DNA of 64,000 nucleotides from a virus (Duplodnaviria; Heunggongvirae; Uroviricota; Caudoviricetes): the IMG/VR virus record IMGVR_UViG_3300028797_000094, positions 166,524-230,523 of that record; one strand, given 5' to 3'. The notes under the pieces were generated by a model, which saw nothing but the letters and a program-made list of their open reading frames with translations, was not told the DNA's origin and ran no database searches. Positions 2,921 to 64,000 of this stretch are shown piece after piece. Each line of letters begins with the position of its first letter. Position 1 is the stretch's first letter. Position numbers and translations under genes: made by a program.

Positions 2921-5578
2921 ATGGCACTTATTGAACATATAAGAAATAGTTTAGTAGACAGTACTGGTAAAATTCGTGAATATTATCTAGCTGAAAATGT
3001 AGATGATGCTTGATTTCAACAAGTAGTTTGTCTTTTAAGTGAATTAAAAACTGTACGAATTTCTATAAATAATGGAAGTTCTTGAACTACTGTAACTAGC
3101 CGTGGTAATGTAAATTTATGTGAATTATTTTATGGCTCTGGTACTAGCAGAGTTTTGCCAGCAAATGCAAATGTAATAATAGAAATAAGTGAATATGTAG
3201 CCCCAGTTGATTATTCTGGTAATGGCTATTATAATAGTGCGAGTATAACTACTGGTGGAACTACTTATACTCCAGTTAGCAATCGTATAACTGTTCCAGT
3301 AAATAAGATAACTAAGACAATAGCAGATGTAAAAGGAACACCAGAAACTTCAACAATTACTATTGATTTTCCTTTACATGTTGAATCTGTTTCTATTGTA
3401 TATAAAGATAAAAATGGTCAAGAACAAACACTTAATATGACTAGAGCTCAATATGATGCTTATATTCAAACTTATGGAACGCATCCAACTTTAGAGTGTT
3501 GATCAGGAACAAGTGCTAGTGTAACTAAAACATATGAAGCTGGTTATGAATCAGGTGGAAGCAGTACAACTGAAACTGATTGAGCTATTGGTAGACCTAG
3601 TGGTGGAACACAAGGTGGAAGTGGTAATGTTTATTATATAGATGATGAAGGTCAAGTTTCAGATGATCCAGCAGATTTAGGTGATCTTGGTGATGATGAA
3701 AGCCCAGCAGTAGAATCATTTACATTTACTTTGACAAAGAACTCGCATATTGATACTATTAAAATTTGAAGAACAAGTTCTCCTTATCAAGGAGCTGCAA
3801 CTTCAACAGAAAGTAGTCCATTAATTAATGGTACTGGAACTGCAACTATTTATTATGGTGATGTTTTAGCTGGTAAAGCTTATGCTGCTACTGGATATCA
3901 TTTTGGTTCATTGAACTCTAATACAACATCTACTTTTTCAAATGCTAGTGTTACAGCAAATGACTCTTGGAGTCCAACTGTTAACTTAAATAGCTACAGT
4001 ATTAAATTCTTAGGCCCAACATCAGGATATGGTAGTTGGAATGTAGATGAAATAGATGCTTATCATGGTGATGCTATCTCAAGAAGCTCTAATACAGTAA
4101 CAATTACAGGAAGAGGCAGCTCTACATTTACACCACCTTCTAATACTGCTCAATATTACTATACTGTAACTTATCCAACTATTTCATCACCTGTTACTGC
4201 TGCAGCAAGTATTAGACCAACAGTTACTCGAAATACTCAAACATATACTATTACTTTAACAAATGAAAACGGCTACTGGGAACAAGGTGCTACTACTATA
4301 ACACAAATTACTAATGTGCCTTATGGTACAGCAATTAGTAAATCAGGAACTACTTTAACAGTAGGCTCTACTAATTATAGTTTTAATGCTAATAGTGCTA
4401 CGGCACAATATACTTATTCTAATCCTCAGATAGTTGCTTTTGCTGGCTCAACTGTAACAGGTAATATGACAATACATGGAAAAGCAACTGCTAATTTAAG
4501 ATCTTATACTGTAACATTAAGTAGTACTAATGGTTATTGAAAAAATTCTGGTGGCACTACAGTAACAACAGCTGGTAGTCGTAGTTATGGAACTACTATG
4601 AGCAAATCAGGAACTACTTTAACTGTTGGGTCTGATACTTATACATTTAATGCTAATGCTAATACAGCTCAGTATAATTATACTAATCCAACAATTGGAA
4701 CAGTACCTTCAACAGTAACTGGTGCACATACAATTTCTGGCTCAGCTACTAGAACACTAAGATCATATACAGTAACAATCTATTATCATTTTGAAGGAAC
4801 TCCTCTATGGTCAGATAATCGTGTCTTTAATTATGGCACACAAGTAAATCCAGATATATATTTTGAAAATTATTCTGATAGTAATTATACATATAGTACT
4901 GCAACTTATGATAATCCACAACAAGATAGTGACTTTGAAGTAACTGGTGATAGAACAGTTTCTGTACATTATATTAATAGAACATTTACTGGTACGGCTA
5001 CTATAACATTTACAAATCCAAATTATGGATACTGAGATTATAATAGTAAAACTGCAACAGCTAATGATTATTTATATATAAGTGGAAATACTGTTACTTG
5101 TAGAATTGGTAGCTCTAGTGGTTCAACTAGATGAACTAATACACTACATCCAGATCCTCAAGATGATGAATTTACTTATACAGCTAGTATAACAAGTTCT
5201 TCTCGTACTGTTAATACTGCTAGTATAAGTATTTCAAGCTCTTCAAGCTATGACTATAGATATTACTATATTCCAGTTACAATATATTTCTATGTTGATG
5301 GTACATATCATCATCAAGCTACAGCTGCTCAATTTGGTCCTGTAACTTACTGAGAGACTTTAAACTCAGAAACAGCTGAGGATATTGGTGGTGTTCCAAG
5401 TTCATTCCAGGTAGAAGGACCAGGAGAAGGTGATCTTAGAGAAGCCACTCTTAGCTATGCACGTATTTCAACATCATCTGATGGAAAGTATAGCTCTACT
5501 TGAAGTGGTCGACCAGTTGAAGTAAGTAGATTTTATGTAAAAGCTTATTATATTACAAATGGTGGAGATGGAGACTAG
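2921..5578 (+). CDS. 885-aa virion-type protein with repeated beta-rich domains (TGA read as Trp)
   Basis: ATG follows an AAAGGA RBS. Track ORFs 3155, 3911 and 4598 share one frame, broken only by about 10 TGA; the gene ends in TAG. Internal repeats align NGY-TGG (4277) with NGY-TGA (4538). Confidence 0.8.
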
Positions 5579-5592
5579 AAAGGAAATTATTT

Positions 5593-7230
5593 ATGAATAG
5601 AGAAGACTTATTTAATATTATAAAAAATTCAAGTTCAGAATATAATACTATTTCAAAGATAGAGAATTTAACGGAAAAATTACCAACACTAAATTCTACA
5701 GATTTTAAAGTATTAACTGAAAATCCTATACTACTTAAAATTATTAGAAATTATTTAGCAAACGCAGAAGATTTAGAAGATGATTTTAAAGATTTATTAG
5801 AAAGAATTATTAAAGAAGTTCCAAGCAATCCGATTATTATTGGCGTTGCTGGAACTTGAGGTAAAACCACAACTTGTAATTTATTATATAAATACTTAAG
5901 AGCTATCGGAAAGCATGCTTGTTTAATAAGTAGTTCTAAAATTGAATGTCCATTTTTTAAGTATGATAGTAATAATTCTCATATTAATACTATTTCAGAT
6001 AATAACTATATTAAAGAATTTGTAAAAAAAGCATTAATGTCTAATCCTGATTATATTATTATTGAAGTACATGAATTAGAAATTTGCAAACGTCAAGCTA
6101 ATTATAATGGTACTATGGCTACTCAAGCCTTTAGAAATTTAGCACCAGGACAAACTATTTTGGATGATATTCCTTTTGATTATAAAATTTTAACTAGTTT
6201 TGAGGAAGCTGTTGTTATGTCAGCATTTCCAAATGAAGATATAGTAATAGCAATAAAAGATTTTATTATTCCACAAGAAAATCAAGTTAGTTTTATTAAT
6301 CTTAATGGTTGCAGTAATGCAGAAGCTATTTATAATTCTTGCAAGTCTGGTAATCTTAAATGGCAAGCATCTACAATTTTAGCGAGACATCAAAATTTAT
6401 ATAATATATTAAAAAATGAAAATAAAATATATAGTGAGATTACAAACTTTTTTACTAATATTGATGGATGTGATGTTTCTTTTGACCTTAATGGTACTAC
6501 TTATATAAGTACAATTTCTAATAAATTTGAAATTGCAGTAGATGCTGTATCAGTTGCAAGTATTTTAGAATATTTAAATTTATTTGATAAAACAGTTTTT
6601 GATAATTGTCTTGCAACACTTAAACAAGCTGATCAAATTATAAAACTTACAAACAATAGAAAAATTATTATTACTCAAAATAATTATATTGATTATACTA
6701 ATGTGTATAAACTTCATGAAATAAATCCAGATGCATTTGCGGGAAAACCACAAAATAGTAAAGTTATTGTAATACAAAGTTCTCCATCAAGATATGGTTA
6801 TGGTATTGGTACATATGAAGAGTATATTAGTAGTAAAGCTGCCGTAGAACCAATTAGAAAGCATGATTGAATTGATAGTAATTGTTGACAGTATGTAGAT
6901 AAGCTAATTATTACTCCTGATAGCCCTGGTGAAGTAACACCAGAACAAGCTTGTGCAGATGTTAAAGAAATTTATGATAAATATTTACCAAAAGAAAATA
7001 CTTTAGAAATAGTAGAAGAAACTGATAGAAAATTAGCAATTAGTCAGGCTGTAGCAAATTTAGAAACAAATGATATTTTAATTATTAGTGGACGTGGTAC
7101 ACGTACTCAGTATTTTTGTAAAGCAGATAAAAAAATACATAATGGTCATGAAGTTATATTATTTTCAGATTTATCAATAGTATTACAAACTATTAATGAT
7201 ATATTTGGAATGGACACTATAATTGGATAG
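5593..7230 (+). CDS. Mur-ligase-like (MurE-type) ATP-dependent amide ligase 1, 545 aa (TGA read as Trp)
   Basis: P-loop GVAGT[TGA]GKTT, IIIE motif, and C-terminal DRKLAISQAV..NDILIISGRG. Three TGA, one inside the P-loop; ends in TAG. Confidence 0.75.
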
Positions 7231-7244
7231 GAGATTTTCAATAT

Positions 7245-8498
7245 ATGATACTATATGAATATATTAATGATAAAACATTAGATGAGAATAAGGTAAATAA
7301 TATAAAAATTATTGGTGTTACTGGATCTGCTGGCAAATCTTCTGTAATTACATTATTACATAAATTTTTTATAGCAAATAATATAAATGTTGCAAGTTTT
7401 TCTACTATAGGTACCTATATAAATAATGATAATATTCAAAAAAATAATACTTATTCTTCTATAGCAACTAAAAATGCTCTAATTAAATTTATATATCAAG
7501 CATACTTAAATAATTGTGAGTATATTATTATAGAATTGACGGCTGAAAATTCTTCTCAGACTTTTTGAGAAAATTTACCTTTTGAAATAATTGCAATTAC
7601 AAATTTAATCGGAGATCATTACTGACATTTTGACTCGGTTGAAAATTATATTAAAGCAAAAGCAAATTATTTTAATAATAATGTTAAATATAAAATAATA
7701 AATAATTTTGGTGAACTTGCTGATGAATATTCAGAGTGTGTTCCAGAAGCTCAAGATGAAATTCCTCAATTGCTGCAATATATTAAAAATAAACAAAATA
7801 TTTATTATTTTGGAAATCATCAAACAGATAATTTAGTGTTAGAACAATATAGCTTAATGCAGGATACTTTTAAAGCGTGTCTAAAAATTAATAAATATAA
7901 AGATACTATTTATACAAATTTATTTGGTAAAAGTAATATTGAAAATGTTTTATGTTATCTAGCAATATTAGATAATCTGGCATTACTAGATTTTGATAAC
8001 TATAATATTATAAACTTTTTACAAGAAGTTACAATAGATGGTAGAAGTGAATTGATAACTATTAATGAAAGATTTATATTTATAGATACATTTTATGAAG
8101 ATTTAGCTGGGGCTCGAACTGCACTAGATTATATTCAAAATAAAAATCCTATTGTAGTATTAGCTACTGGTTGTTTAGGAGAAATTGAACCGCTGTTAAA
8201 AACTTATTGATTAAATTGCAAAAATTTAATTTTAACTAGAACTTTTCGCTATTCTTTATTATTAGAAAAATGTCATATTAAAGCATTAGCGCATTATTAC
8301 AGAAATTTAGGTGATAAGGTTATTATTGAGTATGACAGATATGAAGCTGTTAAAAAAGCTTGTGAATTATCACAACCAGGTGATTATATTATTTTATTAG
8401 GTAAAGGCACAGAAAGATATCATAAAGAAAGCCAAGATGAGACAAATATAGTATGAGAAACTGATAAAGAAGTTGCTCAGCATTATTTAGGAGAGTAA
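7245..8498 (+). CDS. Mur-ligase-like protein 2, 417 aa (TGA read as Trp)
   Basis: GVTGSAGKSS, TNLIGDHY[TGA]H (compare MurE TNLxxDHLDYH), DGRSE and DRYEAVKKA..PGDYIILLGKGTE. Four TGA; ends in TAA. Confidence 0.85.
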
Positions 8499-8499
8499 T

Positions 8500-9297
8500 A
8501 TGATATATGTAAAAATAAATACTTCTACTATGTGTTCACCAGATGAACAAGACTCTATAGCTATATCAAAATTTGATTATTTTAAACTAAACTGTGGCGC
8601 ATTGATATGAGAAAATAATATATTAGTACAAAATCCTGAATTTATACAAAATTTTTTTACTGAACAAGTTTATGGAGTAGAAATAGAATTTTCTTGTAAA
8701 GAAATTTATAATTTATATTTAGCTTTAAATAAAGCCGGTATAAAATATGTAATTAGTAATAAAGCTCATGAAGCAGATTATGAAAATATTGTCATTAAGC
8801 CAGAGATTAGTGTAAAGCATGGTTATGAAATTAATTTTCCACCTGCTTATTCTAGAATTTCTGATGTGCTAAGTATTATCAGCCAATATGTAAAAATCAC
8901 AAAAAATTGTGCTTTACATGTACATATAAGCGACCCGAGATTACATATTGATATTCTTCCAACATTTACTGAGAAATATAAGCAATATGAATTGACAAAC
9001 ATAGCTTTACTCAAGGAACATAATTTATATCATATTTATAGTAGCATAGATTTAACAGCTGATGAGCTAAAGTCAATAGAGCAAGAAAGTCTTGTTACTA
9101 ATTATAATAATATTGAATCATTATTTGATAGAAGAAGACTAACTTTAAACGTATTTAAGGCTTTTAAAAGACATAGAACAGTAGAATTTCGTTTATATAA
9201 GTCTACTCTTGATTATACTGAATTAATGTTTTGTGTAAATAATGCAATAGAGATTGTAAATAATTGCTTAGCTGATATAAATAAAGAGACAGAATAA
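8500..9297 (+). CDS. Putative amidoligase (COOH-NH2 ligase family), 265 aa (one TGA)
   Basis: YGVEIEF, NCALHVHIS and TVEFRL motifs. The frame is open from ATG 8500 apart from a single TGA at 8608. Confidence 0.7.
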
Positions 9298-9310
9298 TCT
9301 GTCTCTTTTT
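9285..9310 (+). terminator. Intrinsic terminator
   Basis: AGAGACAGA-ATAA-TCTGTCTCT followed by a T tract; identical 26-mer at 10548. Confidence 0.85.
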
Positions 9311-9322
9311 ATTTATTTATTT

Positions 9323-9338
9323 TTTGCTAAATTATATG
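9323..9338 (+). promoter_or_regulatory. Putative late-type promoter motif TTTGCTAAATTATATG
   Basis: Intergenic, and recurs near 13432 (minus), 26600, 54304 and 55407, with a variant at 48974. Confidence 0.5.
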
Positions 9339-9389
9339 GAATATAAAACTTTAGTTTTATTTTAAGTGTCTAAAGGAGAAAATAAAATT

Positions 9390-10541
9390 ATGACTATTGA
9401 TCAAGTACAAAAATTATTATTAGATGGTTATATTACAGCTGAAGAAAGTGATTCTTTGCTATATGAATATACTATTTGAGATGAAAATACCCATACAGTT
9501 CTTAATAACCCAGCATGACATCAACCAGACCTAAAAACAATTAAAAAGATTGGTATAACTGGCAGCTTTGGAAAAACTTGTACCTGTGAAATACTTTATC
9601 AGTATTTACGAGCTAAAGGAAAAAGTTGTTTATTACTGTGTACAAATGGTATATTTATAAATGATAGAACTGTTCAAAAAGATTTTTTAGCTACATCTTT
9701 CTCAAAAGCAATGCTTTTAAAGTTATTAAATGGTCTATGTGGGGCAAATTCTATAGATTATGTAATTATTGAATTAGCAGCTGAATTAACTACTTATTTT
9801 AATAATAATCTTTTTATTGATTATATACAATTAGATATTACAGGTTTAACTTTCTTTTCACAAAATTTAACTGCTCATTTTAATAATGATACAGCATTTT
9901 ATCAAAGATGTAAGGATAAAGTACTTGGATTAGCTCCAATACGTTTTGTACCTTCAACCTGCACAGAATTTAATTATACAGATATTTTTGAAAATGTAGA
10001 AAGCTTTAGAAATTATAATAAAAGTCAATTAAGAAACTGATCACTCGCAAAAGCAATATTACAAAAATTAGGTGAATATACTATTCCAGAAGAAGAAATT
10101 CCAAATTTCTATATTCGTGGCCGTTATGAAGATTTTTTAAATAATAAAATTATAATTGATACTTGTTGAAGTGGAATACGACATTTATGTGAATGCTATA
10201 AGCCATTAAATAAAAAATTTAGAGTAATATATGTACCTATTTTTTGACCAGACATTAATCAATCTATAATAAATTATAGGCGACGTCAATTACCAACTTT
10301 AGCAAGTTGTGAACATGTTTATATAACTGATCCGAAAGAAATTACTGTAGAAAAAGATTTAGATTTTTATAAAGATTTTTTACCAGAAGATCACAGTAAT
10401 TTTGAATATATTTTTGGCTGGGAAAATTGTGTACGAAAAGCTATAAATGAATTACAAGATGATGAAATTTTATTAATAGCTTGTAGAGAAAACTTTAGAG
10501 CTTTTAGACATATCTTGGTTGATTTATTAGATAAAGAATAA
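9390..10541 (+). CDS. Mur-ligase-like protein 3, 383 aa, divergent (TGA read as Trp)
   Basis: AAAGGAG RBS, GITGSFGKTCT P-loop, VIIE and IRGRYE motifs. Five TGA; ends in TAA. Confidence 0.7.
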
Positions 10542-10615: not shown

Positions 10616-12625
10616 TTATTTAATTTCTATATAAGTATTAGGTTTTGTCTTAATTGCGACTACACCGCCGGCAGTTCGACCTTTTGTAATAAAATCTTTA
10701 ACATTAATAAGTTTATTTTTCTTATTGTAAACTGCTTTAATACTTGTTTCATCGTCAACATTTTCACAATAGATAATTTCATCTTTATCATTTACTTTCA
10801 TCACAGGTGCACCTGCAAGTTTTGTTAAACCAAATACAATATTTGCTTCAATTTTCTTTGCAAGACCACATTTTGTAATAAAGAATAAATAATCTTTATC
10901 TTCAAGTCCTGTGAAAATATTTATAATCTTTTCGTTCTTTTCTAAACAATTAAATAAAGTTCCTGATAGATTTTGTTTTACATTTGTATTTAATGTTTTT
11001 TCTTCACATTTATACATTGTGCCTTTATTTGAAATTAAAACAAATCTATCTTTTTTATTTATTTCAATAAACTTAATATCAGTATTATTTAATTTATTTC
11101 TATTAAAGATTTGAGAAGAAATTTTTCTAATTTTGCCTTCATTATCAAGAATAATAATAAATTTTTCTTCTTGTTTTTCTTGTTTTAATGTTTGTTTTTC
11201 TTCTTCTAAGTCAACATCAATAACTTCTGTTCTACGTTCCCAGCCAAACTTTTTAGCAAAATCATTTAATCTTTTTAAGAATTCTTTTTGTTGTAATTCT
11301 TCTGAACTTAAAATTAATTTGCAGTTAATAATTAAGTTATTTAAATCTTTTTGTTCATTAACTAATTCTTGTTGCTCAAGATTTGCAAGTTTTCCAAGTC
11401 TCATATCAATAATTGCTTTAGCTTGGTTTTCTGTAAAAGTAAACTTAGAAATTAATTTTTCTTTTGCAAGCTCAGCAGATTTAGAAGATTTAATTACTTT
11501 AATAACATCATCAATAATAGACAAAGCAGTAAGCAAACCATTAACAATTTCAAGTCTGTTTTCAGCTTTTTCTTTATCAAAAGTATATTCACGAACTAAA
11601 CATTTAATATTATGTTCAACATAAACTTTAATATAATCTTGCAAAGTTAACATTTGTGGAACACCATCAACAAGTGCCATTTGATTTGCATTAAAAACTA
11701 CTTGTAAATCAGTTAATTTGTATAATTTACTTAAAACTAATTTAGGTTCAACTGAACATTCTATCTCAATAAATAAACCATTATCATCAGATTTATTGCA
11801 AATATCTTCAATACCTGTTAAAGTTCCAGCATTAACTAAATCTTTAATTTTTTGAATAAAAGGTTCGGCATAAACTTGATAAGGAAGCTCATAAATGTTA
11901 ATATATTTGCCTAAAATTTCAGTTTTTCCTCTTAAAATTACTTTACCACGACCTGTTTTATAGATTTCAGACAGGTCTTTTTTATTTATAATGATACCAC
12001 CAGTTGGAAAATCAGGATAAATATCAGTGAAAGTAATTTTCTTTTTAGAAATATATTGTTTAACTTTACTTACAAACTCATTTAAGTTGCCAGGTTCCCA
12101 TTCTTGTGCAATAGTATAACCAATTCCTTGACTACCATTAACAAATAATCTTGGAAAAATAGCAGGAAATACTGACGGCCATTCGTCATCTTCTGAAAAA
12201 TTAGGAATCATATCAATTACATTTTTCTTTATGTTTTTAAATAAGCCATCTTCTGCAGCTTTTGATAGACGACATTCAGTATATCTCGAACTTGCTGCTT
12301 CTGGCCCACCTAAAAGTGAACCATTTGCGCCGTGAAAGTCAACTTCAGGAATATTATTTAGCCATTCTTGTGACATACGAACAAGTGCTTCATATGCAGA
12401 ACTATCACCATGTGGCCATAATTCACCAATAACAGCACCTGTAATTTTTGCAGACTTTACATGTGGCTTATCAGCGGTAAATCCTTTTCTAAACATTGTA
12501 TATAGAGCAGCTCTTTGTGCCGGCTTTAATCCATCACGAGCATCTGGAAAGGCACGATTATTATTAACTTCTTGAGCATAAACAAGAAAATCTGTTTTTA
12601 ATTCGTCTAAAATGTTAATTGACAT
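10616..12625 (-). CDS. Type IIA DNA topoisomerase subunit A (GyrA/ParC family)
   Basis: RAFPDARDGLKP, WPHGDSSAY, catalytic AASSRYTE and PDFPTGG motifs; short C-terminal domain. All Trp are TGG. Confidence 0.95.
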   Translation of the reverse strand: MSINILDELKTDFLVYAQEVNNNRAFPDARDGLKPAQRAALYTMFRKGFTADKPHVKSAKITGAVIGELWPHGDSSAYEALVRMSQEWLNNIPEVDFHGANGSLLGGPEAASSRYTECRLSKAAEDGLFKNIKKNVIDMIPNFSEDDEWPSVFPAIFPRLFVNGSQGIGYTIAQEWEPGNLNEFVSKVKQYISKKKITFTDIYPDFPTGGIIINKKDLSEIYKTGRGKVILRGKTEILGKYINIYELPYQVYAEPFIQKIKDLVNAGTLTGIEDICNKSDDNGLFIEIECSVEPKLVLSKLYKLTDLQVVFNANQMALVDGVPQMLTLQDYIKVYVEHNIKCLVREYTFDKEKAENRLEIVNGLLTALSIIDDVIKVIKSSKSAELAKEKLISKFTFTENQAKAIIDMRLGKLANLEQQELVNEQKDLNNLIINCKLILSSEELQQKEFLKRLNDFAKKFGWERRTEVIDVDLEEEKQTLKQEKQEEKFIIILDNEGKIRKISSQIFNRNKLNNTDIKFIEINKKDRFVLISNKGTMYKCEEKTLNTNVKQNLSGTLFNCLEKNEKIINIFTGLEDKDYLFFITKCGLAKKIEANIVFGLTKLAGAPVMKVNDKDEIIYCENVDDETSIKAVYNKKNKLINVKDFITKGRTAGGVVAIKTKPNTYIEIK

Positions 12626-12640
12626 TATTTCCTCCTGTAA

Positions 12641-13396
12641 TTATACTTGTATATTAGGTCATTCATGGCCTAATCAAACATTTCTAAAAGTACTTTTTTT
12701 CAGTCCTATTTGTCTATAAAAAGTCTCATAAACTGTTTGTCAGTTTTCGCCATTTTTTCGTCTCAATCTTATATCTTTTACCATACTTTCATCTAAAATG
12801 GCTCTACCATTCTTAGAACCTTTACAGCCAGTATTATTTTTATGAAAGTTTTTATTTTCTTCTGTATAAACTTCTGGCATTATGTCGCTTCAAGTATGAC
12901 CTTGTCAAATTTTTTTAAAGCCAGATGGACCTATTTTATCTTTATATAGTTCTTCTACCTCATAACGACGCTCATGATTAGCATATCTTGTTCTAATATC
13001 AATAATATCTTCTATAGTTAATTTATGATTTGGATGTTTATCATCTCCGCTAAAACCATCATTATCACCACCATCAGTAATATTATAACCGATATCTCTG
13101 TTTTGGGTATTAAGTTTAGTAATTCAATATTTTTCAAATAAGCCTAAATCTTTTTTATCACATATTTCTATGATAGTAAATTCAAAATTTTCAACACCAT
13201 ATAATTGAAATGCTTTGTATAACGGCTTATTTGGTTCTTTCTTTCAAGAAGACTCTGAACAATGTTGTGCTCATCTTTTTTTAATATTAGTAGATCTGCC
13301 AATATAAAGTTTATTATTTACTAAATTTTTAATTTGGTAAATACCGCAAATTGCTTCTTCTCTAGCATAAGCTTCATGTAATTCTTTGAATGTCAT
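12641..13396 (-). CDS. Free-standing GIY-YIG homing endonuclease, 251 aa (TGA read as Trp; absent from the ORF track)
   Basis: GIYQIKNLVNNKLYIGRS, KR[TGA]AQH, EKY[TGA]I and GYNITDGG, plus two C-terminal repeats ending I[TGA]xGxT[TGA]-like. AAGGAG RBS; about 8 TGA and no TGG; ends in TAA. Confidence 0.9.
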
Positions 13397-13482: not shown

Positions 13483-15402
13483 TTATTCAATATTAATAGG
13501 TATACTATTAGCATTTGCTAATAGATAGTCGCGTCTTGAATCTATTTTAGTTCCCATAAATATTTCTAATAAATTATCAGTTTCTTCAATATCATTAATT
13601 AGTAATTGGTGCACAGTACGTGTATCAGGTCTTAATAAATATTGAGCTAATTCTTCACTAGAACTTTCGCCTAAACCTTTGTTTCTATTAATTATAAACT
13701 GTTCTTTATGTGTTTTTTTATAATTATTTAAAGCTTTCTGGTCTACTAAATATATATATTCATTCTTTTTTGTTGTAATTCTAAATAGAGGTGGAATTGC
13801 TACATAAATATGACCGTTAATTATTAATTCTGGGCATAGCCACCAAAACATATTTATTAATAATAGTCTAATATCATAGCCATCAGCATCAGCATCAGCT
13901 GCTAAAATAATTTTACCATATCTTAATTTCTTTTCATCATAAATAAGCTTACCTGTTGTTTTATCAATGTCTAACCCAATAGCTTTTACAATATTAGAAA
14001 TTTCTTGATTACCATAAATTTTTTCTACTGCAGCTTTTCTGCAAGACAATACTTTACCTCTAATTGGAAATACCGCTTGAGTTTTACCATCACGCTTAGC
14101 AATAAGACCATTAGCAGCACTATCTCCTTCTGTAATAAATAATTCACATTCATTACGATTTTTAGAATAAGCATCAACTAATTTTGTTGGAAGTGATATA
14201 AATTTTTTATTTTTAGCACCAGTATTTCTGATATTATCTTTGGCTTTTTGTGCGGCTTCACGAGCTTTTCTTGCAGTTAAAGCTTTATTAACAATAGTTT
14301 TAACATCTTTTGGATTATTGTTTAGCCAATCAACAAATTCATTATTAATAACATCATTAATTAAAGTTTTATCTAAGTCAACAATTCTAACTTTTGTTTG
14401 TGAATCATACTTAACATTCTTAGCTTTAACATTAAATGCAAGTACTAAGCCTTCAGAAAGCTCAACTTGAGTTAATGGATCATCATTTTTCTTTAATAGA
14501 CCATTTGCAGAAGCATATCTATTAATTTGACGAGTTAGACCATACTTAACTGCTGCAATATGAGCTCCGGCTTCAGTTAAACCATAATTAACATATGGAA
14601 TAATTGTTTCAGAATAGTCTGAAGTATAAGTCATTGCAATATCAATAAGTTCATTTTCTGTAGATTTCTTAGCAGTAAATCTTTTATTTAAAATTTCTTT
14701 CTTAGAAACTTTCTTATCAAATAAATCTGCAAGTCCATTTTTAGAATGATAAACAAACGTATCATAATTTACAATAAAATTAATAGTTAACTCAGGGCAA
14801 AGAGCAGCAATATCTTCAAAAAGTTTCTTTAATTCATTGATATTTACTCTATAATTTTGAAAGAATTGAGGGTCTGGTTCCCAAATAACTAAAGTTCCTG
14901 AGCCTTCATTATAAGTATCTTTGCCTGTTTCACGAGATTTAAAAATACCATCTTCAAATATTAATTCTTCAAAATTTTTACCGTCAGATGAACGAACTAA
15001 TAATTTTGTAGAAAGGAAATTTGTAAGCTTAGCTCCAATACCATTTAGACCAAGGCTTGCACCGCCATAAACTCCGTCATCATCATACTTACCAGAAGTA
15101 TTAAAACGGTCAAATGCAGCTTGCAAAATAGTTTCGCCATCTTTATCTACATTGATAGGAAAACCTTGTCCATGATCTTGAACAGAACAGTTGCAAACTC
15201 CGTTTTCTTCACAGATACTTACATCTATTTCTTTACCATGACCAATTATATGCTCATCTAAAGCATTAGCAAAAACTTCTTTAACTAATTGAGTAGAATA
15301 CTCATTAGAGCCAAGATAAGTTGCTGGACGAAGCCTAGTAAAGTCTCTTGGACTTAAAGTTTTTATACTATCTTCGGTATATAAAGTTTTGTCTTTCTTC
15401 AT
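13483..15402 (-). CDS. Type IIA DNA topoisomerase subunit B (GyrB/ParE family)
   Basis: RLRPATYLGS, EVFANALDE, GLNGIGAK, EGDSA, PIRGK and ADADADG motifs. Start placed at MKKDK after a GGAGG RBS. Confidence 0.95.
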   Translation of the reverse strand: MKKDKTLYTEDSIKTLSPRDFTRLRPATYLGSNEYSTQLVKEVFANALDEHIIGHGKEIDVSICEENGVCNCSVQDHGQGFPINVDKDGETILQAAFDRFNTSGKYDDDGVYGGASLGLNGIGAKLTNFLSTKLLVRSSDGKNFEELIFEDGIFKSRETGKDTYNEGSGTLVIWEPDPQFFQNYRVNINELKKLFEDIAALCPELTINFIVNYDTFVYHSKNGLADLFDKKVSKKEILNKRFTAKKSTENELIDIAMTYTSDYSETIIPYVNYGLTEAGAHIAAVKYGLTRQINRYASANGLLKKNDDPLTQVELSEGLVLAFNVKAKNVKYDSQTKVRIVDLDKTLINDVINNEFVDWLNNNPKDVKTIVNKALTARKAREAAQKAKDNIRNTGAKNKKFISLPTKLVDAYSKNRNECELFITEGDSAANGLIAKRDGKTQAVFPIRGKVLSCRKAAVEKIYGNQEISNIVKAIGLDIDKTTGKLIYDEKKLRYGKIILAADADADGYDIRLLLINMFWWLCPELIINGHIYVAIPPLFRITTKKNEYIYLVDQKALNNYKKTHKEQFIINRNKGLGESSSEELAQYLLRPDTRTVHQLLINDIEETDNLLEIFMGTKIDSRRDYLLANANSIPINIE

Positions 15403-15425
15403 AGATACCTCCATCTATTCATATT

Positions 15426-35959: not shown

Positions 35960-37300
35960 ATGTATACTTTAAATGATGCAGTTATTATTGGAATTACTGG
36001 TCGTAGTGGTAAATCTTCTACTGCTTATCTTGTTCATGAGTATTTAAAAAGTATTGGTAAAAAGTCAATTATTTATAGTTCATGCTTAGTAGAATCACCA
36101 GCAAGTTTTGCAGAAGACGGCGTATCTTATGATTTTGCTTTTAGTTCTGAAAGAGCCATTGTTAATATTTTAAATGAAGCTATTGCTTATGAAGCAGAAT
36201 ATATTATTTTAGAGTGCTGAGAAGCTTCTATTGCAAAAGGTGTGTTTGATAATATTCCATTTGATATTAAATGTTTAACTAAGTTTTATTACACAGGAAA
36301 TGGTCATATTTCAGCTGAACAAGTATATCAAAATAAATTAAGATTTTTTAAAGATGATGAAGATGCTATTTGTTTATTTAATATTGTGGGTGATGAAAAG
36401 TATACTCCAGATTATTCAACTTCAAGAATGATTTCAGAAGCTAATTGTTCTAATGTAGTATTATATGATTCAATTGGACTTAAAGACTGATTTATGGCAG
36501 ATTCAAGCTTGGCACCATATGATGTTATTTTTAGATGTCGTGGTCAAATTGCAAATAATTTTACAGCTAATGATGTAAAATATTATGCAAATGGTAGAAC
36601 TTTTGGATTAGAACAACAAAGTGCAAATTTATATTGTAATGGAACAAATTTTAATATAAATACAACACTTGCAGGTAGTGCTCATTTAGAAAATATTGTT
36701 AGTGCAATGGCAATATTAAATGAAGCCGGTGCATTTGATATAGATGCTTTTCAATCTTTTATTTCTAACCCAGATTTACAAATTCCAGGTCGTATGGAAG
36801 ATATTGAGTATCAAGATAAAACTATTATTATAGATACTGATGCAGATAGTGCTTTACCTATAATTAAAAGATTATCTGGTAATCGTAGAATTGTTGTAGT
36901 TGATTCTTATCGTTTAACAAAAATTGATAGTAATGAGCAATATAGAAAAGATAATCCTGATATTTCTTATGAATATAATTTTGATTATGAACCATCAATT
37001 TTAAATCAATATGCAGATTTTGTTTATGTTACAACTGATGATATATGTGATTTACATGAAGGAATAATTATTAGTAATTTTGCTAGTAGACTTACTGTTC
37101 CATATGAAATTATAAGTGATCGTAAACAAGCAATTAGAACTGCTATTGTTGAAAATGGTGATAATCATAATGATATTATTTGTATTTTAGGTAGAGGTAA
37201 TAGAGATATTAGATTTACTGGTTACCACTCAATTGAGTTATTTAACGATAGAAAAGTTGTTCAAGAAATATTAGAAGAATTAGAAAATGAAAGGAAATAA
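35960..37300 (+). CDS. Mur-ligase-like protein 4, 446 aa (2 TGA read as Trp)
   Basis: GITGRSGKSS, IILE, NIVSAMA, IPGRME and DRKQAIRTAI..DIICILGRG motifs. Three track ORFs lie in one frame. Confidence 0.85.
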
Positions 37301-55380: not shown

Positions 55381-55439
55381 CTTTAAAAATTTATCTTAAA
55401 AAATTCGCTAAATTTAGTGTAAGAAAATTTAATATTTAA

Positions 55440-55510
55440 ATTCTTGTGGGCAAACTATTGGAAACGATAGGACGCAAAGCTATAGGGCCTTAAATGGTAG
55501 CCAGTTGCTT
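55440..55510 (+). ncRNA. c-di-GMP-I (GEMM) riboswitch aptamer 1
   Basis: GGCAAA-CTATTG-GAAA-CGATAG-GACGCAAAGCTAT-AGGGCCT..GGTAGC-CAGTTGC: P2 with a GAAA loop, the GACGCAAAG junction and P3. Confidence 0.9.
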
Positions 55511-55530
55511 AATTAGGTAGCTGGTTTTTT
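55500..55530 (+). terminator. Riboswitch 1 expression-platform terminator
   Basis: GCCAGTTGCTTA/TAGGTAGCTGGT stem plus T tract; overlaps the 3' end of the aptamer. Confidence 0.8.
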
Positions 55531-55547
55531 ATTTTGCTCCTAATTAA

Positions 55548-55624
55548 AATCCATAAGGCAAAACACAGGAAACTGTGTGACGCAAAGCTATAGGACCTGA
55601 GATAAATATGGTAGCCAGTTGCAT
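55548..55624 (+). ncRNA. c-di-GMP-I (GEMM) riboswitch aptamer 2
   Basis: GGCAAA-ACACAG-GAAA-CTGTGT-GACGCAAAGCTAT-AGGACCT..GGTAGC-CAGTTGC; P2 covaries with aptamer 1. Confidence 0.9.
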
Positions 55625-55653
55625 TATAGAGATATTTTGCAATTGGCTTTTTT
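55614..55653 (+). terminator. Riboswitch 2 expression-platform terminator
   Basis: GCCAGTTGCA/TGCAATTGGC stem plus T tract; overlaps the 3' end of the aptamer. Confidence 0.8.
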
Positions 55654-55675
55654 ATTATGTTTATCGGAGGTAGCT

Positions 55676-56386
55676 ATGAGAAAAAGGAATGATTATTTAT
55701 ATCATCAAACAGCGTATTACAAAACAAGAGCATTTTTAAGATTAGGTATTTTAATATTAATACTCATCTTAGCACTCTTAGGATTTTTTGCTTACTTTTC
55801 ACAGTATAGTGGAACATTTGTTATTAGCTTAGACAAATATTCCCAAGCTGGTTTAAGCCTATGTGAAAAGCCAGATTTTTTAGAACCAACAAGTATGCTT
55901 CATGCAAGTACGATAAAAAAGATTAATCCTATTGAATATAAGACAGTTCCAATAGAAAGTGTTTTAGAAACTGATGGATTATCTAAAGAACCTAATTGTT
56001 TTGGATATACTTATTATTTAAAAAATGTTGGTGAGACAATTGTTGACGTTGATGTAAATGTTATTCAAGAAGGTGCTAGACAAAACTTAGATAAGTGTTC
56101 AAGAATTTTAGTTTTAAAAGATGACGAACCTATCGGAGTTTTCAAGGTGACTGACGGTTACATTGATCCACAAGATCAGACACCACCAGACTTGTATAGA
56201 CAATACTCAGGAAAAGATGTTTATACATTTAGTATTTATCACTTGAACCCAAATGATATTGTAAAATTTACAGTTATTATTTGGTTAGAGGGTTGGGATA
56301 TTGATTGTACCGATGACAAGATTGGTGGTGCAGTTCAATACGGTATGACAATAGGTATTGTAAATTATTACAAAGAAGAAGATTAA
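55676..56386 (+). CDS. Membrane-anchored or secreted protein with an AYF motif after the hydrophobic segment
   Basis: GGAGG RBS; ...LALLGFFAYFS; YYLKNVG; C-terminal IWLEGWDIDC. Confidence 0.7.
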   Translation: MRKRNDYLYHQTAYYKTRAFLRLGILILILILALLGFFAYFSQYSGTFVISLDKYSQAGLSLCEKPDFLEPTSMLHASTIKKINPIEYKTVPIESVLETDGLSKEPNCFGYTYYLKNVGETIVDVDVNVIQEGARQNLDKCSRILVLKDDEPIGVFKVTDGYIDPQDQTPPDLYRQYSGKDVYTFSIYHLNPNDIVKFTVIIWLEGWDIDCTDDKIGGAVQYGMTIGIVNYYKEED

Positions 56387-61470: not shown

Positions 61471-62340
61471 ATGAGTATTTACAGTGGAAAATGTGATCTT
61501 TATGACCATATAGCAGGCTTAGGTGGCTGGTATAATAGAGACGGTAAACCTGTTAGTTTTAATGATCCAGATGTTCATGTATTTTATTCAGATGAATATC
61601 GAGATTTCTTAGAATTTAAAAAACGTACAAATGGTACAATGTATCAACACAAGAAAGTTAAAGTAACTGAATGGAATCAAGATGAAGTTACTAAAAAGAC
61701 TGATCATTTTAAAGTTATCGAACATAAGGAAATTGTTGCTGATAAACGTTTAAAAGAAGGCCAAAGAGAAAAAGTTACTTATACTTATGAATATTTTGGC
61801 AGAGAATATAATTCTCTTAAAGAATTAAATAAGCATGGTGTTTATGTAACTATGGAAATTCATTTTGAAACTTTATTAGATTTAATTCCATATTATCCAT
61901 ATTTAGTTTCAATGAGTATGAGTGATAAAGGTAAAGAAATTGTTTACCTTTCACAAGAAAGTTTTGTTGATTCAGAACGTGATGATAACTATGAACACGG
62001 CTTCTTTTCAGAATTTTGGGAACATTATAAGAGAGATTTACAAGATCATTATCGTGATATTGTATTAACTTATTTTAATCCAGAAGGCAGAGAAAATCGA
62101 GAAATAGTTGTATTTGATGAAAATAGACGTGGTTGCGTATCAAAACCAATTGATTCTAATTTTAATGTAATATGGGATTTTGGTGATGGCCCAATTAAGA
62201 GTCATTGGACTTCGCCTAAAGTAATCAATGCAGAAACTGGTGAAATTGAAATAAGTAAAGAAGATTATGAAAGTTATTTAGGTCATACTGTTTCAGTTTA
62301 TTATGTTGAAGCTAAAGAATATCCTATTAAAATTAGCTAA
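61471..62340 (+). CDS. Hypothetical phage protein
   Basis: AAGGAG RBS; TTGTATAAT at 61388; all Trp are TGG. Confidence 0.7.
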   Translation: MSIYSGKCDLYDHIAGLGGWYNRDGKPVSFNDPDVHVFYSDEYRDFLEFKKRTNGTMYQHKKVKVTEWNQDEVTKKTDHFKVIEHKEIVADKRLKEGQREKVTYTYEYFGREYNSLKELNKHGVYVTMEIHFETLLDLIPYYPYLVSMSMSDKGKEIVYLSQESFVDSERDDNYEHGFFSEFWEHYKRDLQDHYRDIVLTYFNPEGRENREIVVFDENRRGCVSKPIDSNFNVIWDFGDGPIKSHWTSPKVINAETGEIEISKEDYESYLGHTVSVYYVEAKEYPIKIS

Positions 62341-62960
62341 TGGTGATAATTATGGAAAATAAAACAATAGCTGTAGATTTAAAAGATTTTTATCAATTGT
62401 TAATTGCAGAATGTCGTTATGGCTATACTCGTAATAATCATTTAATGCCAAGTGGTGCCTATGATAAAGTTAAATATTATTTTCCAAAAATGTTTGAAAT
62501 TGATAATGATTATGCAATTTATACATTAAAACAACTTTGCGATGAATGTATTAGTCAACAATTAATTATGAATTTTTATGATGGCGAAGATGACGAATAC
62601 AATAGTCATAAAGAAGCAATAGAATTTATTTCTTGGTGCTTAAATGAAATTCATAAAGTAGATACTTATTGGTTTCCATATAATATGGATCAATATTTAG
62701 AAAATCTTAAAAAAGATGATGAGCCAAGATATAATGTTTATATTATGGAAGGTAAGACAAAATTATTATTAACTAAAAAACCAGTAAGTGTTAATGATTA
62801 TTTTAAAGTTATTGTTGATACGATAAATTCTGACAGTGCTATTTTTAGAAAAGAAACTATTAGAGCTTTAGATAAAGAAGAACCAAAAAGTAAATATGAT
62901 GATTATATTTATCATATTTTAGAACCTGTTCAAAAAGATTTTTATGTAGAACATATTTAA
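62340..62960 (+). CDS. Hypothetical phage protein
   Basis: Coupled ORF; alternative start at 62352. Confidence 0.65.
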   Translation: MVIIMENKTIAVDLKDFYQLLIAECRYGYTRNNHLMPSGAYDKVKYYFPKMFEIDNDYAIYTLKQLCDECISQQLIMNFYDGEDDEYNSHKEAIEFISWCLNEIHKVDTYWFPYNMDQYLENLKKDDEPRYNVYIMEGKTKLLLTKKPVSVNDYFKVIVDTINSDSAIFRKETIRALDKEEPKSKYDDYIYHILEPVQKDFYVEHI

Positions 62961-62968
62961 AATATATA

Positions 62969-63112
62969 CACGGGCAGTCTCACGTGTGGCAAGGATGCTC
63001 TTCCTGCCGGATAGACCAGACCTCTTTGTAGTGTTGACGCGTAAGGTAAATGCTACCGCCATGTCGGTGAAAGATGACAAGGGGATTTAGTTAATTTCTA
63101 CCCAAAGCCGTG
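62969..63112. other. GC-rich non-coding structured island
   Basis: Much richer in GC than its surroundings; stems ACACG/CGTGT, GGCA(A)GGA/TCCTGCC and ACCG/CGGT. Confidence 0.4.
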
Positions 63113-63290
63113 AAATTAATAAAGAGTATTATTTTTGAAACAAATTGTCGTTGAATGAATGACAAATAAACAAAACATTCAATAATTCCTCCTAAATGCT
63201 AATATTTCATATTTAATTCCTCCTGTTTGAAATATAAGTGACGGCAGTTTCTTCAAAAAAAATTTGCAAAATTTATTGTATAATATATAT

Positions 63291-63365
63291 AGGGGTTTCG
63301 GTAAGTGGTTATGCCAGGAGTCTTCAAAACTTCTATCGTGGGTTCGAATCCTACAACCCCTGCCA
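63291..63365 (+). tRNA. tRNA-Trp with UCA anticodon (opal-decoding), CCA encoded
   Basis: Acceptor stem AGGGGTT/AACCCCT, discriminator G, CCA end. Anticodon stem GGAGT/ACTTC with loop CT-TCA-AA (63324-63326). T arm GTGGG-TTCGAAT-CCTAC; short variable loop. Confidence 0.92.
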
Positions 63366-63376
63366 TTTAATAAATT

Positions 63377-63409
63377 GCCAGTTTAATTTTTTATTAAATT
63401 GGCTTTTTT
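63377..63409 (+). terminator. Intrinsic terminator after the tRNA
   Basis: GCCAGTTTAAT/ATTAAATTGGC stem plus T tract. Confidence 0.8.
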
Positions 63410-63465
63410 AATTTTAAAATATTATAAAAAATATTGTATAATATATAGTAGATGAGGTATTTAAT

Positions 63466-64000
63466 ATGAGTTATATTGAAACAAAAACTATTCCTGTCCT
63501 AGTATTTGATGAGAAGCCAGTTTTACCAGGTAGTAGAATACACTTAGTAACTTCAAGTCAATTTTTCAAGGACTGTTATACAGTTTCACAAGAGCAATAT
63601 AATTGCGAAGTTGGTTTATTGTTTAGAACACCAATGACAAGTGAAATTAAATCAGCAGGAGTATTTGGCTATTTTAGAAATGTTACTTTTGTTGATGATG
63701 AAAATATAACATTTGATCTTGAAATAGAAAAGAGATTGGAATTAGTTGAATTTGGAAGTGCTGCTTCCGCAGATAATCCAAATGTTAATTGCCAAACTGC
63801 AAATGTTAATATCTATAATGATGATAGTGAAAATCTTAGTCCAGAAGATGATGCAGTATTTATGTATATCAGAAAGAAAGCTAAGAAATTTCAAAATCAT
63901 ATTTTTAAAGACCCTCTTGCAGTTCAACAATATATAAATATTGATAATAGAAAATCGTTACTATGTGATTTAATTGCAGCTAATTTAACAACTATTCAAG
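63466..64000 (+). CDS. 3'-truncated protein resembling the Lon protease N-terminal domain
   Basis: GAGG RBS; IPVLVFDEKPVLPGSRIHL resembles the Lon start LPxLPLRxxVxFPG; open to the window edge; TTGTATAAT at 63434. Confidence 0.45.
   Translation, partial: MSYIETKTIPVLVFDEKPVLPGSRIHLVTSSQFFKDCYTVSQEQYNCEVGLLFRTPMTSEIKSAGVFGYFRNVTFVDDENITFDLEIEKRLELVEFGSAASADNPNVNCQTANVNIYNDDSENLSPEDDAVFMYIRKKAKKFQNHIFKDPLAVQQYINIDNRKSLLCDLIAANLTTIQ

Follow-up and report, generated by a model that had tools for sequence, protein, structure and literature searches.

A tRNA(UCA) gene with its own promoter and terminator heads a lon-trpS cluster in a 237-kb phage with TGA-recoded genes

Phages with TGA-recoded genes, their suppressor tRNAs and the idea that such recoding regulates late genes have already been published, and the code-change module of the Jade phages consists of a suppressor tRNA, a tryptophanyl-tRNA synthetase (TrpRS) and RF1 (Borges et al., bioRxiv 10.1101/2021.08.26.457843). 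For the phages AP1 and HF2, the pairs of phage TrpRS and tRNA-Trp(UCA) were found experimentally to insert tryptophan at UGA (PMC12636597). With regard to tRNA synthesis, the archaeon Nanoarchaeum equitans, which lacks RNase P, transcribes its tRNAs without a leader throughout the genome (PMC10941002).

The locus described here resembles the Jade module in that a tRNA(UCA) lies beside a phage TrpRS gene, and that the genes of the module keep to the standard code whereas TGA stands for tryptophan in other genes; a low GC content, an association with the animal gut and mosaic recoding are common to both as well. It differs in that a full-length LonA is encoded between the tRNA and trpS, that no release-factor domain was found, that the tRNA is provided with a promoter and a terminator of its own, and that downstream of the module a tRNA array near the genome end takes the place of a lysis cassette. 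Co-location of a phage TrpRS with a tRNA(UCA) is also a trait of the AP1 and HF2 pairs, and G73 and A73 types occur in both sets; unlike those pairs, the present one is a pair predicted from its genes. Agate and other code-4 gut phages likewise have TGA-recoded structural genes and a tRNA with the UCA anticodon and an anticodon arm of the Trp type (GUCUUCAAAAC), whereas those among them without a TrpRS of their own lack the dedicated synthetase that is present here, next to a tRNA with a plain 4-nt variable loop. A code-change kit of this kind has thus already been described, and the phage is a well-documented further example of it that introduces no new principle. What is new is the tight unit of promoter, tRNA and terminator with a predicted start at base 1 of the tRNA, the presence of lon in a code-change module, and the clear-cut division of two promoter motifs between two codon usages.

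The DNA that was analysed, in the following called the window, is a stretch of 64 kb (record positions 166524-230523) of a phage record of 237,392 bp, which has a GC content of 29% and is complete according to CheckV. Sequencing runs containing DNA of this phage are labelled bovine gut metagenome, and the two best of them may represent the source sample; among the runs listed for the locus, none was of RNA. ARAGORN lists a single tRNA in the window, which is located on the plus strand and has tca at position 34 (Table 1). The Rfam tRNA model RF00005 matches it with 54.5 bits (gathering score 29) at an E value of 5.6e-9 for the 64 kb, and the cloverleaf is the minimum free energy (MFE) fold of the 75 nt. 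The acceptor stem AGGGGUU/AACCCCU comprises 7 bp, including A1-U72 and G2-G5, and is followed by the discriminator G73; U8, G18G19, the anticodon loop CUUCAAA, a variable loop of 4 nt and the T-loop UUCGAAU complete the picture. By these features it is recognised as a canonical class-I tRNA with anticodon UCA, which is related to the bacterial-type tRNA-Trp.

Table 1 The tRNA(UCA) locus and the cluster that follows it. Positions refer to the window unless marked as genome positions.
Feature	Position	Strand	Details and basis
Promoter motif ATTGTATAATA (standard-code class)	63275-63285	+	-10 hexamer TATAAT at 63279-63284; read from the sequence
tRNA(UCA), Trp type, 75 nt	63291-63365	+	ARAGORN, Rfam, MFE cloverleaf, covariation
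Landmarks of tRNA(UCA)	Anticodon 63324-63326; G73 63362; encoded CCA 63363-63365		
Intrinsic terminator	63377-63409	+	11-bp stem, 5-nt loop, T-run; terminator scan and fold
Second ATTGTATAATA copy, promoter of the lon-trpS operon	63433-63443	+	Kept in L019
Phage lon, 5' part	63466-64000, runs past the window end	+	789 aa, full-length LonA; TIGR00763 809 bits
trpS	Genome 232345-233430		TIGR00233 317.5 bits vs cut-off 176.75; PF00579 match
18-tRNA array	Genome 234260-237093		Includes, and ends in, tRNA-Trp(CCA)

These results agree with the first-pass annotation, which had proposed an opal-decoding tRNA of the Trp type with anticodon UCA and had named ARAGORN as a means to check it; Rfam and the fold point the same way. 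The TATAAT that it had reported can be read directly, and a spacer of 6 nt (atatat) separates the last base of the hexamer (63284) from the first base of the tRNA (A63291). Likewise, it had noted an encoded CCA with a terminator following within about 12 nt, and the stem of the hairpin indeed begins 11 nt 3' of the CCA. According to the terminator scan, this stem of 11 bp extends to 63403 and is followed by TTTTTT; the hairpin folds with -12.8 kcal/mol (z -3.8), and a terminator downstream of the tRNA is also kept in the closest relative that we found (L019, whose 223-kb genome has terminal repeats). The transcript predicted from these elements has a length of about 119-122 nt, in which cloverleaf and terminator fold without mutual interference. 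Judged by this arrangement, the tRNA(UCA) is an autonomous mini-gene with a promoter and a terminator of its own. The earlier description of the gene as stand-alone is therefore right with respect to its transcription unit, but not with respect to its surroundings, since it stands first in a translation cluster whose last part is the array of 18 tRNAs.

Within this cluster, trpS follows directly after lon in one operon, 2.5 kb downstream of the tRNA(UCA) and just beyond the window, and another copy of ATTGTATAATA is located between trpS and the array. Neither lon nor trpS contains a TGA codon. The tRNA(UCA) thus stands at the head of a conserved TGA-free cluster composed of the tRNA, lon-trpS and the 18-tRNA array, and the same order is kept in L019, L024 and L027, which include a 127-kb contig. 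In two further lineages, L028 and L031, the tRNA(UCA) is located 0.8-3 kb upstream of a trpS whose product is 63-64% identical, and lon is missing. As lon stands beside the tRNA(UCA) in one closely related group only, and since the lon of another lineage (L020, 33% identity) has neither a tRNA nearby nor local recoding, the link to lon should not be generalised.

Several observations concern the genomic setting of these genes. The code-change cluster and the array (window 63275 to the record end, genome 229.8-237.4 kb) lie within 8 kb of the right end, and in a relative with direct terminal repeats they are found 2.6-17 kb from an end; such a location could mean first entry into the cell or first transcription. 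The tRNA(UCA) genes of L028 (2922-2995) and L031 (743-819) both have A73 and are close to their own trpS; genes for an RNA ligase, a kinase-like protein and a SAM synthetase lie in between in L028, and the unit in L031 has its own terminator. Upstream of the tRNA in the window, the intergenic positions 62963-63142 form an element whose GC content is about 50%, compared with 28% for the genome, and which is identical to L019 at 175 of 180 positions, compared with about 75% identity for the adjacent tRNA and 60-90% for the flanking genes. It had no Rfam match and no significant fold, was found in no phages or plasmids nor elsewhere in the genome, and is single-copy; it could be a non-coding RNA or belong to a recombination tract into which the gene at 62340-62960 falls as well. 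Two mini-ORFs on the minus strand (63116-63256), each after AGGAGG, are kept in L019, the second being MFCLFVIHSTTICFKNNTLY at 63178-63116, and the pattern CCTCCT..TTGA..AAAT..TGACGGC is present by these mini-ORFs as well as upstream of the tRNA(UCA) of the unrelated L028. Further away, tandem c-di-GMP-I riboswitch aptamers (55439-55512 and 55547-55626; 60.8 and 65.1 bits compared with a gathering score of 35) stand ahead of the gene at 55619-56386.

Comparison of the tRNA with those of other phages was confined to few relatives, which is what pattern scans of IMG/VR and of metagenomes yielded. Six tRNA(UCA) genes from phages were compared; 17 of the 21 pairs have compensatory changes, and G30-U31-CUUCAAA-A39-C40 is invariant. 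The GUCUNCAAAAC arm is also found in the phage's own tRNA-Trp(CCA), and the best outside matches of positions 25-63 include tRNA-Trp genes of Bacillus phages. L019 has exactly the same D-arm UCGGUAAGUGGUUAUGCC, and L031 almost the same. Otherwise, the window tRNA and its syntenic counterpart in L019, whose acceptor stem has G1-C72 and A3-U70, have only G73 and the anticodon arm in common. G73 is present in the window, L019, L001 and L008, and A73 in L028 and L031. The first-pass annotation had pointed to AGGGG and G73 as a Trp-like acceptor end; both are present in the window tRNA, but A1-U72 and AGGGG are not kept in the closest relative, and since the acceptor stem is not conserved, this argument is valid for the present genome only.

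The question of what TGA means in this phage was addressed by means of codon usage and orthologues. Translation with table 4 fuses many fragmented frames into long ORFs, one of which comprises 2,744 aa with 43 TGA. In the whole genome, 82 genes contain at least two in-frame TGA, and in these TGA accounts for 1.14% and TGG for 0.32% of the codons; in the 141 TGA-free genes, TGG accounts for 1.07% (321 TGG in total). TGG is hence depleted 3.3-fold exactly where TGA occurs, which suggests that TGA stands in for TGG. The PhoH-like gene illustrates this at the level of single columns, since it has six TGA and no TGG, and at all six columns TGG is found in at least one of three orthologues. W is almost invariant at these columns in 23 homologues with 58-91% identity; however, the homologues are from recoded phages themselves, and every close one that was checked translates only with TGA read as W, which is why we compared the codons, i.e. 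the alternation of TGG and TGA, and not the translated W. The TGA-free genes all stop with TAA or TAG, and about three genes genome-wide could stop with TGA. As they use TGA neither as sense nor as stop codon, the TGA-free genes are readable in either code and would be unharmed by a suppressor. From these comparisons TGA is assigned to tryptophan in the recoded genes, and the genome is a mosaic of two codes, in which recoded genes and standard-code genes stand side by side.

Two further sources were discarded for the decoding of TGA. Paralogues within the genome, i.e. pairs of fibre-like proteins, are only 20-25% identical, and the residues opposite TGA (T, A, S, G and others) were uninformative; a PDB homologue with A, L and V at these columns was too distant and is overridden by orthologues with 60-90% identity. 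The mosaic reaches down to single genes: a GIY-YIG homing endonuclease gene on the minus strand (12641-13396) with eight TGA and no TGG represents a recoded mobile gene, and it is located between the TGA-free minus-strand genes 10616-12625 and 13483-15414 of a standard-code block. At 2921-10541 and 35960-37300, large fibre-like genes are succeeded by several recoded Mur-ligase-like paralogues and by an amidoligase-like gene. In the 237-kb genome, the RF-1 and PCRF domains (PF00472 and PF03462) had no match, whereas the controls matched; the Pfam search of the phage genome was also negative for RNA polymerase beta, beta' and sigma region 2. Divergent proteins could have escaped these searches.

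The two groups of genes also differ in the motifs that precede them. The 11-mer ATTGTATAATA, which includes TATAAT, occurs in 38 copies on the plus strand and four on the minus strand of the 237 kb, where about one would be expected, and the copies are mostly located 20-40 nt before the start codons of TGA-free genes, typically after a terminator-like hairpin. Its core TGTATAAT is found within 120 nt upstream of 19 of the 135 TGA-free and two of the 69 recoded genes (p 0.014), and the reverse applies to GCTAAATT (20 of the 69 recoded and six of the 135 TGA-free genes, p 1.8e-6), which has 42 copies on the plus strand and nine on the minus strand, e.g. at window 26600 (genome 193123), and is a candidate late promoter element. 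The promoter of the tRNA(UCA) belongs to the class ahead of the TGA-free genes, and that this class is early is supported, though as an inference. What had been called an early-type promoter is consequently well placed as to its motif class, while the word early carries this reservation. A sigma-70 scan did not list the promoter because it has no -35 match; in the ATTGTATAATA class as a whole, a -35 element is missing, and all that precedes the motif is a patch rich in A, about 24-26 nt before the 3' end of the hexamer. The TG of the motif directly adjoins the hexamer, in contrast to the canonical extended -10, in which it is one base away. One copy of ATTGTATAATA, with its core at genome 109809, lies about 230 nt upstream of a tRNA-like gene of 89 nt (L014:10045-10133, genome 110045-110133), for which ARAGORN gives an undetermined two-base 'anticodon' (at) and which could be an intron-containing or a degenerate tRNA.

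Where transcription of the tRNA(UCA) would begin can be estimated from the other copies of the motif. The consensus after the hexamer is A-W-W-A-T-R, with a purine at +6 in 34 of the 38 ATTGTATAATA copies. In addition, the first base of the Shine-Dalgarno sequence is often found at +6 to +8 after the hexamer, so that the starts cannot lie much further downstream. In the window, T is at -1 and A1 of the tRNA at +7 after the hexamer; sigma-70-type starts preferentially have such a T-1/A+1 step 7 nt downstream of the hexamer. In L019, the spacer is shortened to 5 nt (attat), which places G1 of its tRNA at +6, the position of the consensus purine. The best predicted start therewith coincides with the mature 5' end of the tRNA or lies at most 2 nt upstream, and base 1 of the tRNA would fall on the predicted start in two diverged genomes. 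Such a primary transcript is predicted to need 3' trimming only. This recalls N. equitans, where the promoter is likewise placed for a start at base 1 and RNase P is not needed; unlike there, a single tRNA of a bacterial virus is concerned, which is predicted from spacing only, and the other tRNAs of the phage are located in arrays that need processing.

With regard to function, the following course of events may be envisaged. The tRNA(UCA) and the lon-trpS mRNA would be made together and early from the same class of promoter, and the phage TrpRS, whose gene is readable in the standard code, would charge the suppressor tRNA. The charged suppressor would then build up and outcompete RF2, upon which the TGA-rich genes, which may be transcribed from the GCTAAATT motif and have most of their Trp codons as TGA, would become translatable. 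Any role of Lon is speculation; it might clear read-through products or remove RF2.

The explanation that accounts best for the data as a whole is that the tRNA(UCA) reads UGA as tryptophan for about one third of the phage genes, namely those with in-frame TGA, which the codon equivalence makes quite probable. An insertion of another residue at UGA, i.e. selenocysteine, glycine or cysteine, has hardly any probability. The SeC label that ARAGORN assigns, which derives from the anticodon alone, an identity of 82% between positions 7-61 and a phage tRNA-Gly, and the residues of the distant PDB homologue could be read in this way, but one and the same conserved W column holds TGA in some orthologues and TGG in others. 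Moreover, the 75 nt, the 7/5 stems and the 4-nt variable loop contrast with the long variable arm and the about 90-95 nt of a selenocysteine tRNA (Sec-like tRNAs of 93-94 nt are present in the unrelated loci L005 and L007), and the tRNA has A1-U72, G2-C71, G73 and A36 and not the G1-C72, C2-G71, U73 and C36 of a tRNA-Gly. Very improbable, too, is a host that uses code 4 like Mycoplasma, for which the tRNA(UCA) would be an ordinary phage tRNA-Trp without any code switch. A GC content of 29% would suit such a host, as would the best named bacterial match of the TrpRS, which is from an Anaeroplasma sp. MAG (62% identity); a TrpRS search of genome contigs gave matches in Clostridia MAGs at 41-46% identity only. 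However, 141 genes with TGG throughout and no TGA would not be maintainable under AT pressure if UGA were always readable, each of the two codon usages goes with a promoter motif of its own, and the phage has a tRNA-Trp(CCA) in addition. As to the enzyme that charges the tRNA(UCA), the first-pass annotation had assumed the host TrpRS. With a phage trpS 2.5 kb downstream in the same cluster, charging need not depend on the host enzyme, and we infer that the phage TrpRS is the more likely charger. Such a dependence on the host, with the phage enzyme serving another purpose, e.g. the supply of Trp-tRNA, is the less probable though by no means negligible case: the acceptor stem (A1-U72, G2-G5) and G73 match bacterial tRNA-Trp, Borges et al. 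cite the tryptophanylation of UGA suppressors by E. coli TrpRS (10.1101/2021.08.26.457843), and the HF2 TrpRS and E. coli tRNA-Trp cross-react in vitro (PMC12636597). Against this stand the trpS gene in the same cluster in every relative found, the loss of A1-U72 and G3-C70 in the closest relative, and the tRNA-UCA of AP1, which also has G73 and was not charged in E. coli without the AP1 TrpRS (PMC12636597); that a tRNA of the G73 type needed its own synthetase there makes the phage enzyme the likelier charger here.

Preferring tryptophan at UGA and charging by the phage enzyme leaves the leader and the timing to be weighed. A leader of truly zero length has about an even chance, and a tRNA(UCA) with a leader, which arises from a start few bases upstream or from read-through and whose 5' end is made by RNase P, falls somewhat short of that. 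A start at A5 of the spacer would leave a leader of 2 nt, no terminator was called between the gene at 62340-62960 and the tRNA promoter, so that read-through precursors with long leaders are possible, and L031, a more distant relative, has its nearest -10-like element 18 nt before the tRNA, which points to a leader of about 12 nt; a zero-length leader is hence no family trait. The preferred spacing of T-1/A+1, the position of the tRNA base in L019 and the early mRNAs of the phage, with their Shine-Dalgarno sequences from +6 to +8, argue against a leader. Concerning timing, the tRNA(UCA) had been regarded as the obvious timer of the code switch, a claim that is not supported in this form: with GCTAAATT, the recoded genes possess a promoter-like motif of their own, so that the timing may be set by late transcription and the tRNA might only license translation. 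The corresponding possibility that the tRNA is constitutive from the start of infection, that the recoded genes are timed by their own promoter class, and that recoding is not a clock but a lock, which keeps out competitors or prevents translation that is leaky or too early, comes close to an even chance. It is in line with the enrichment of GCTAAATT upstream of recoded genes and with the TGA-free genes, which avoid TGA as sense and as stop codon and would be indifferent to the suppressor. On the other hand, TGA is missing from all 141 standard-class genes in spite of 29% GC, which suggests that their translation precedes the time at which UGA can be read, and thus a lag. In its furthest-reaching form, the proposal would be a 5'-triphosphate, RNase P-independent tRNA(UCA), the first in a bacterial virus, within a self-contained code-switch cassette together with lon-trpS, in which Lon clears host UGA read-through products or removes RF2 so that 43 TGA in one gene become readable; this combination of claims we regard as rather doubtful.

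The TrpRS and its tRNA represent a further candidate for an orthogonal TrpRS:tRNA-UCA pair, and, if the predicted start site is true, the gene would exemplify a tRNA that can do without 5' processing. Above all, the locus offers a compact and delimited natural kit for the reading of UGA as tryptophan, consisting of promoter, tRNA, terminator and lon-trpS in a complete phage of 237 kb, with which the hypothesis that a code switch regulates late genes would be testable on about 3.5 kb of DNA.
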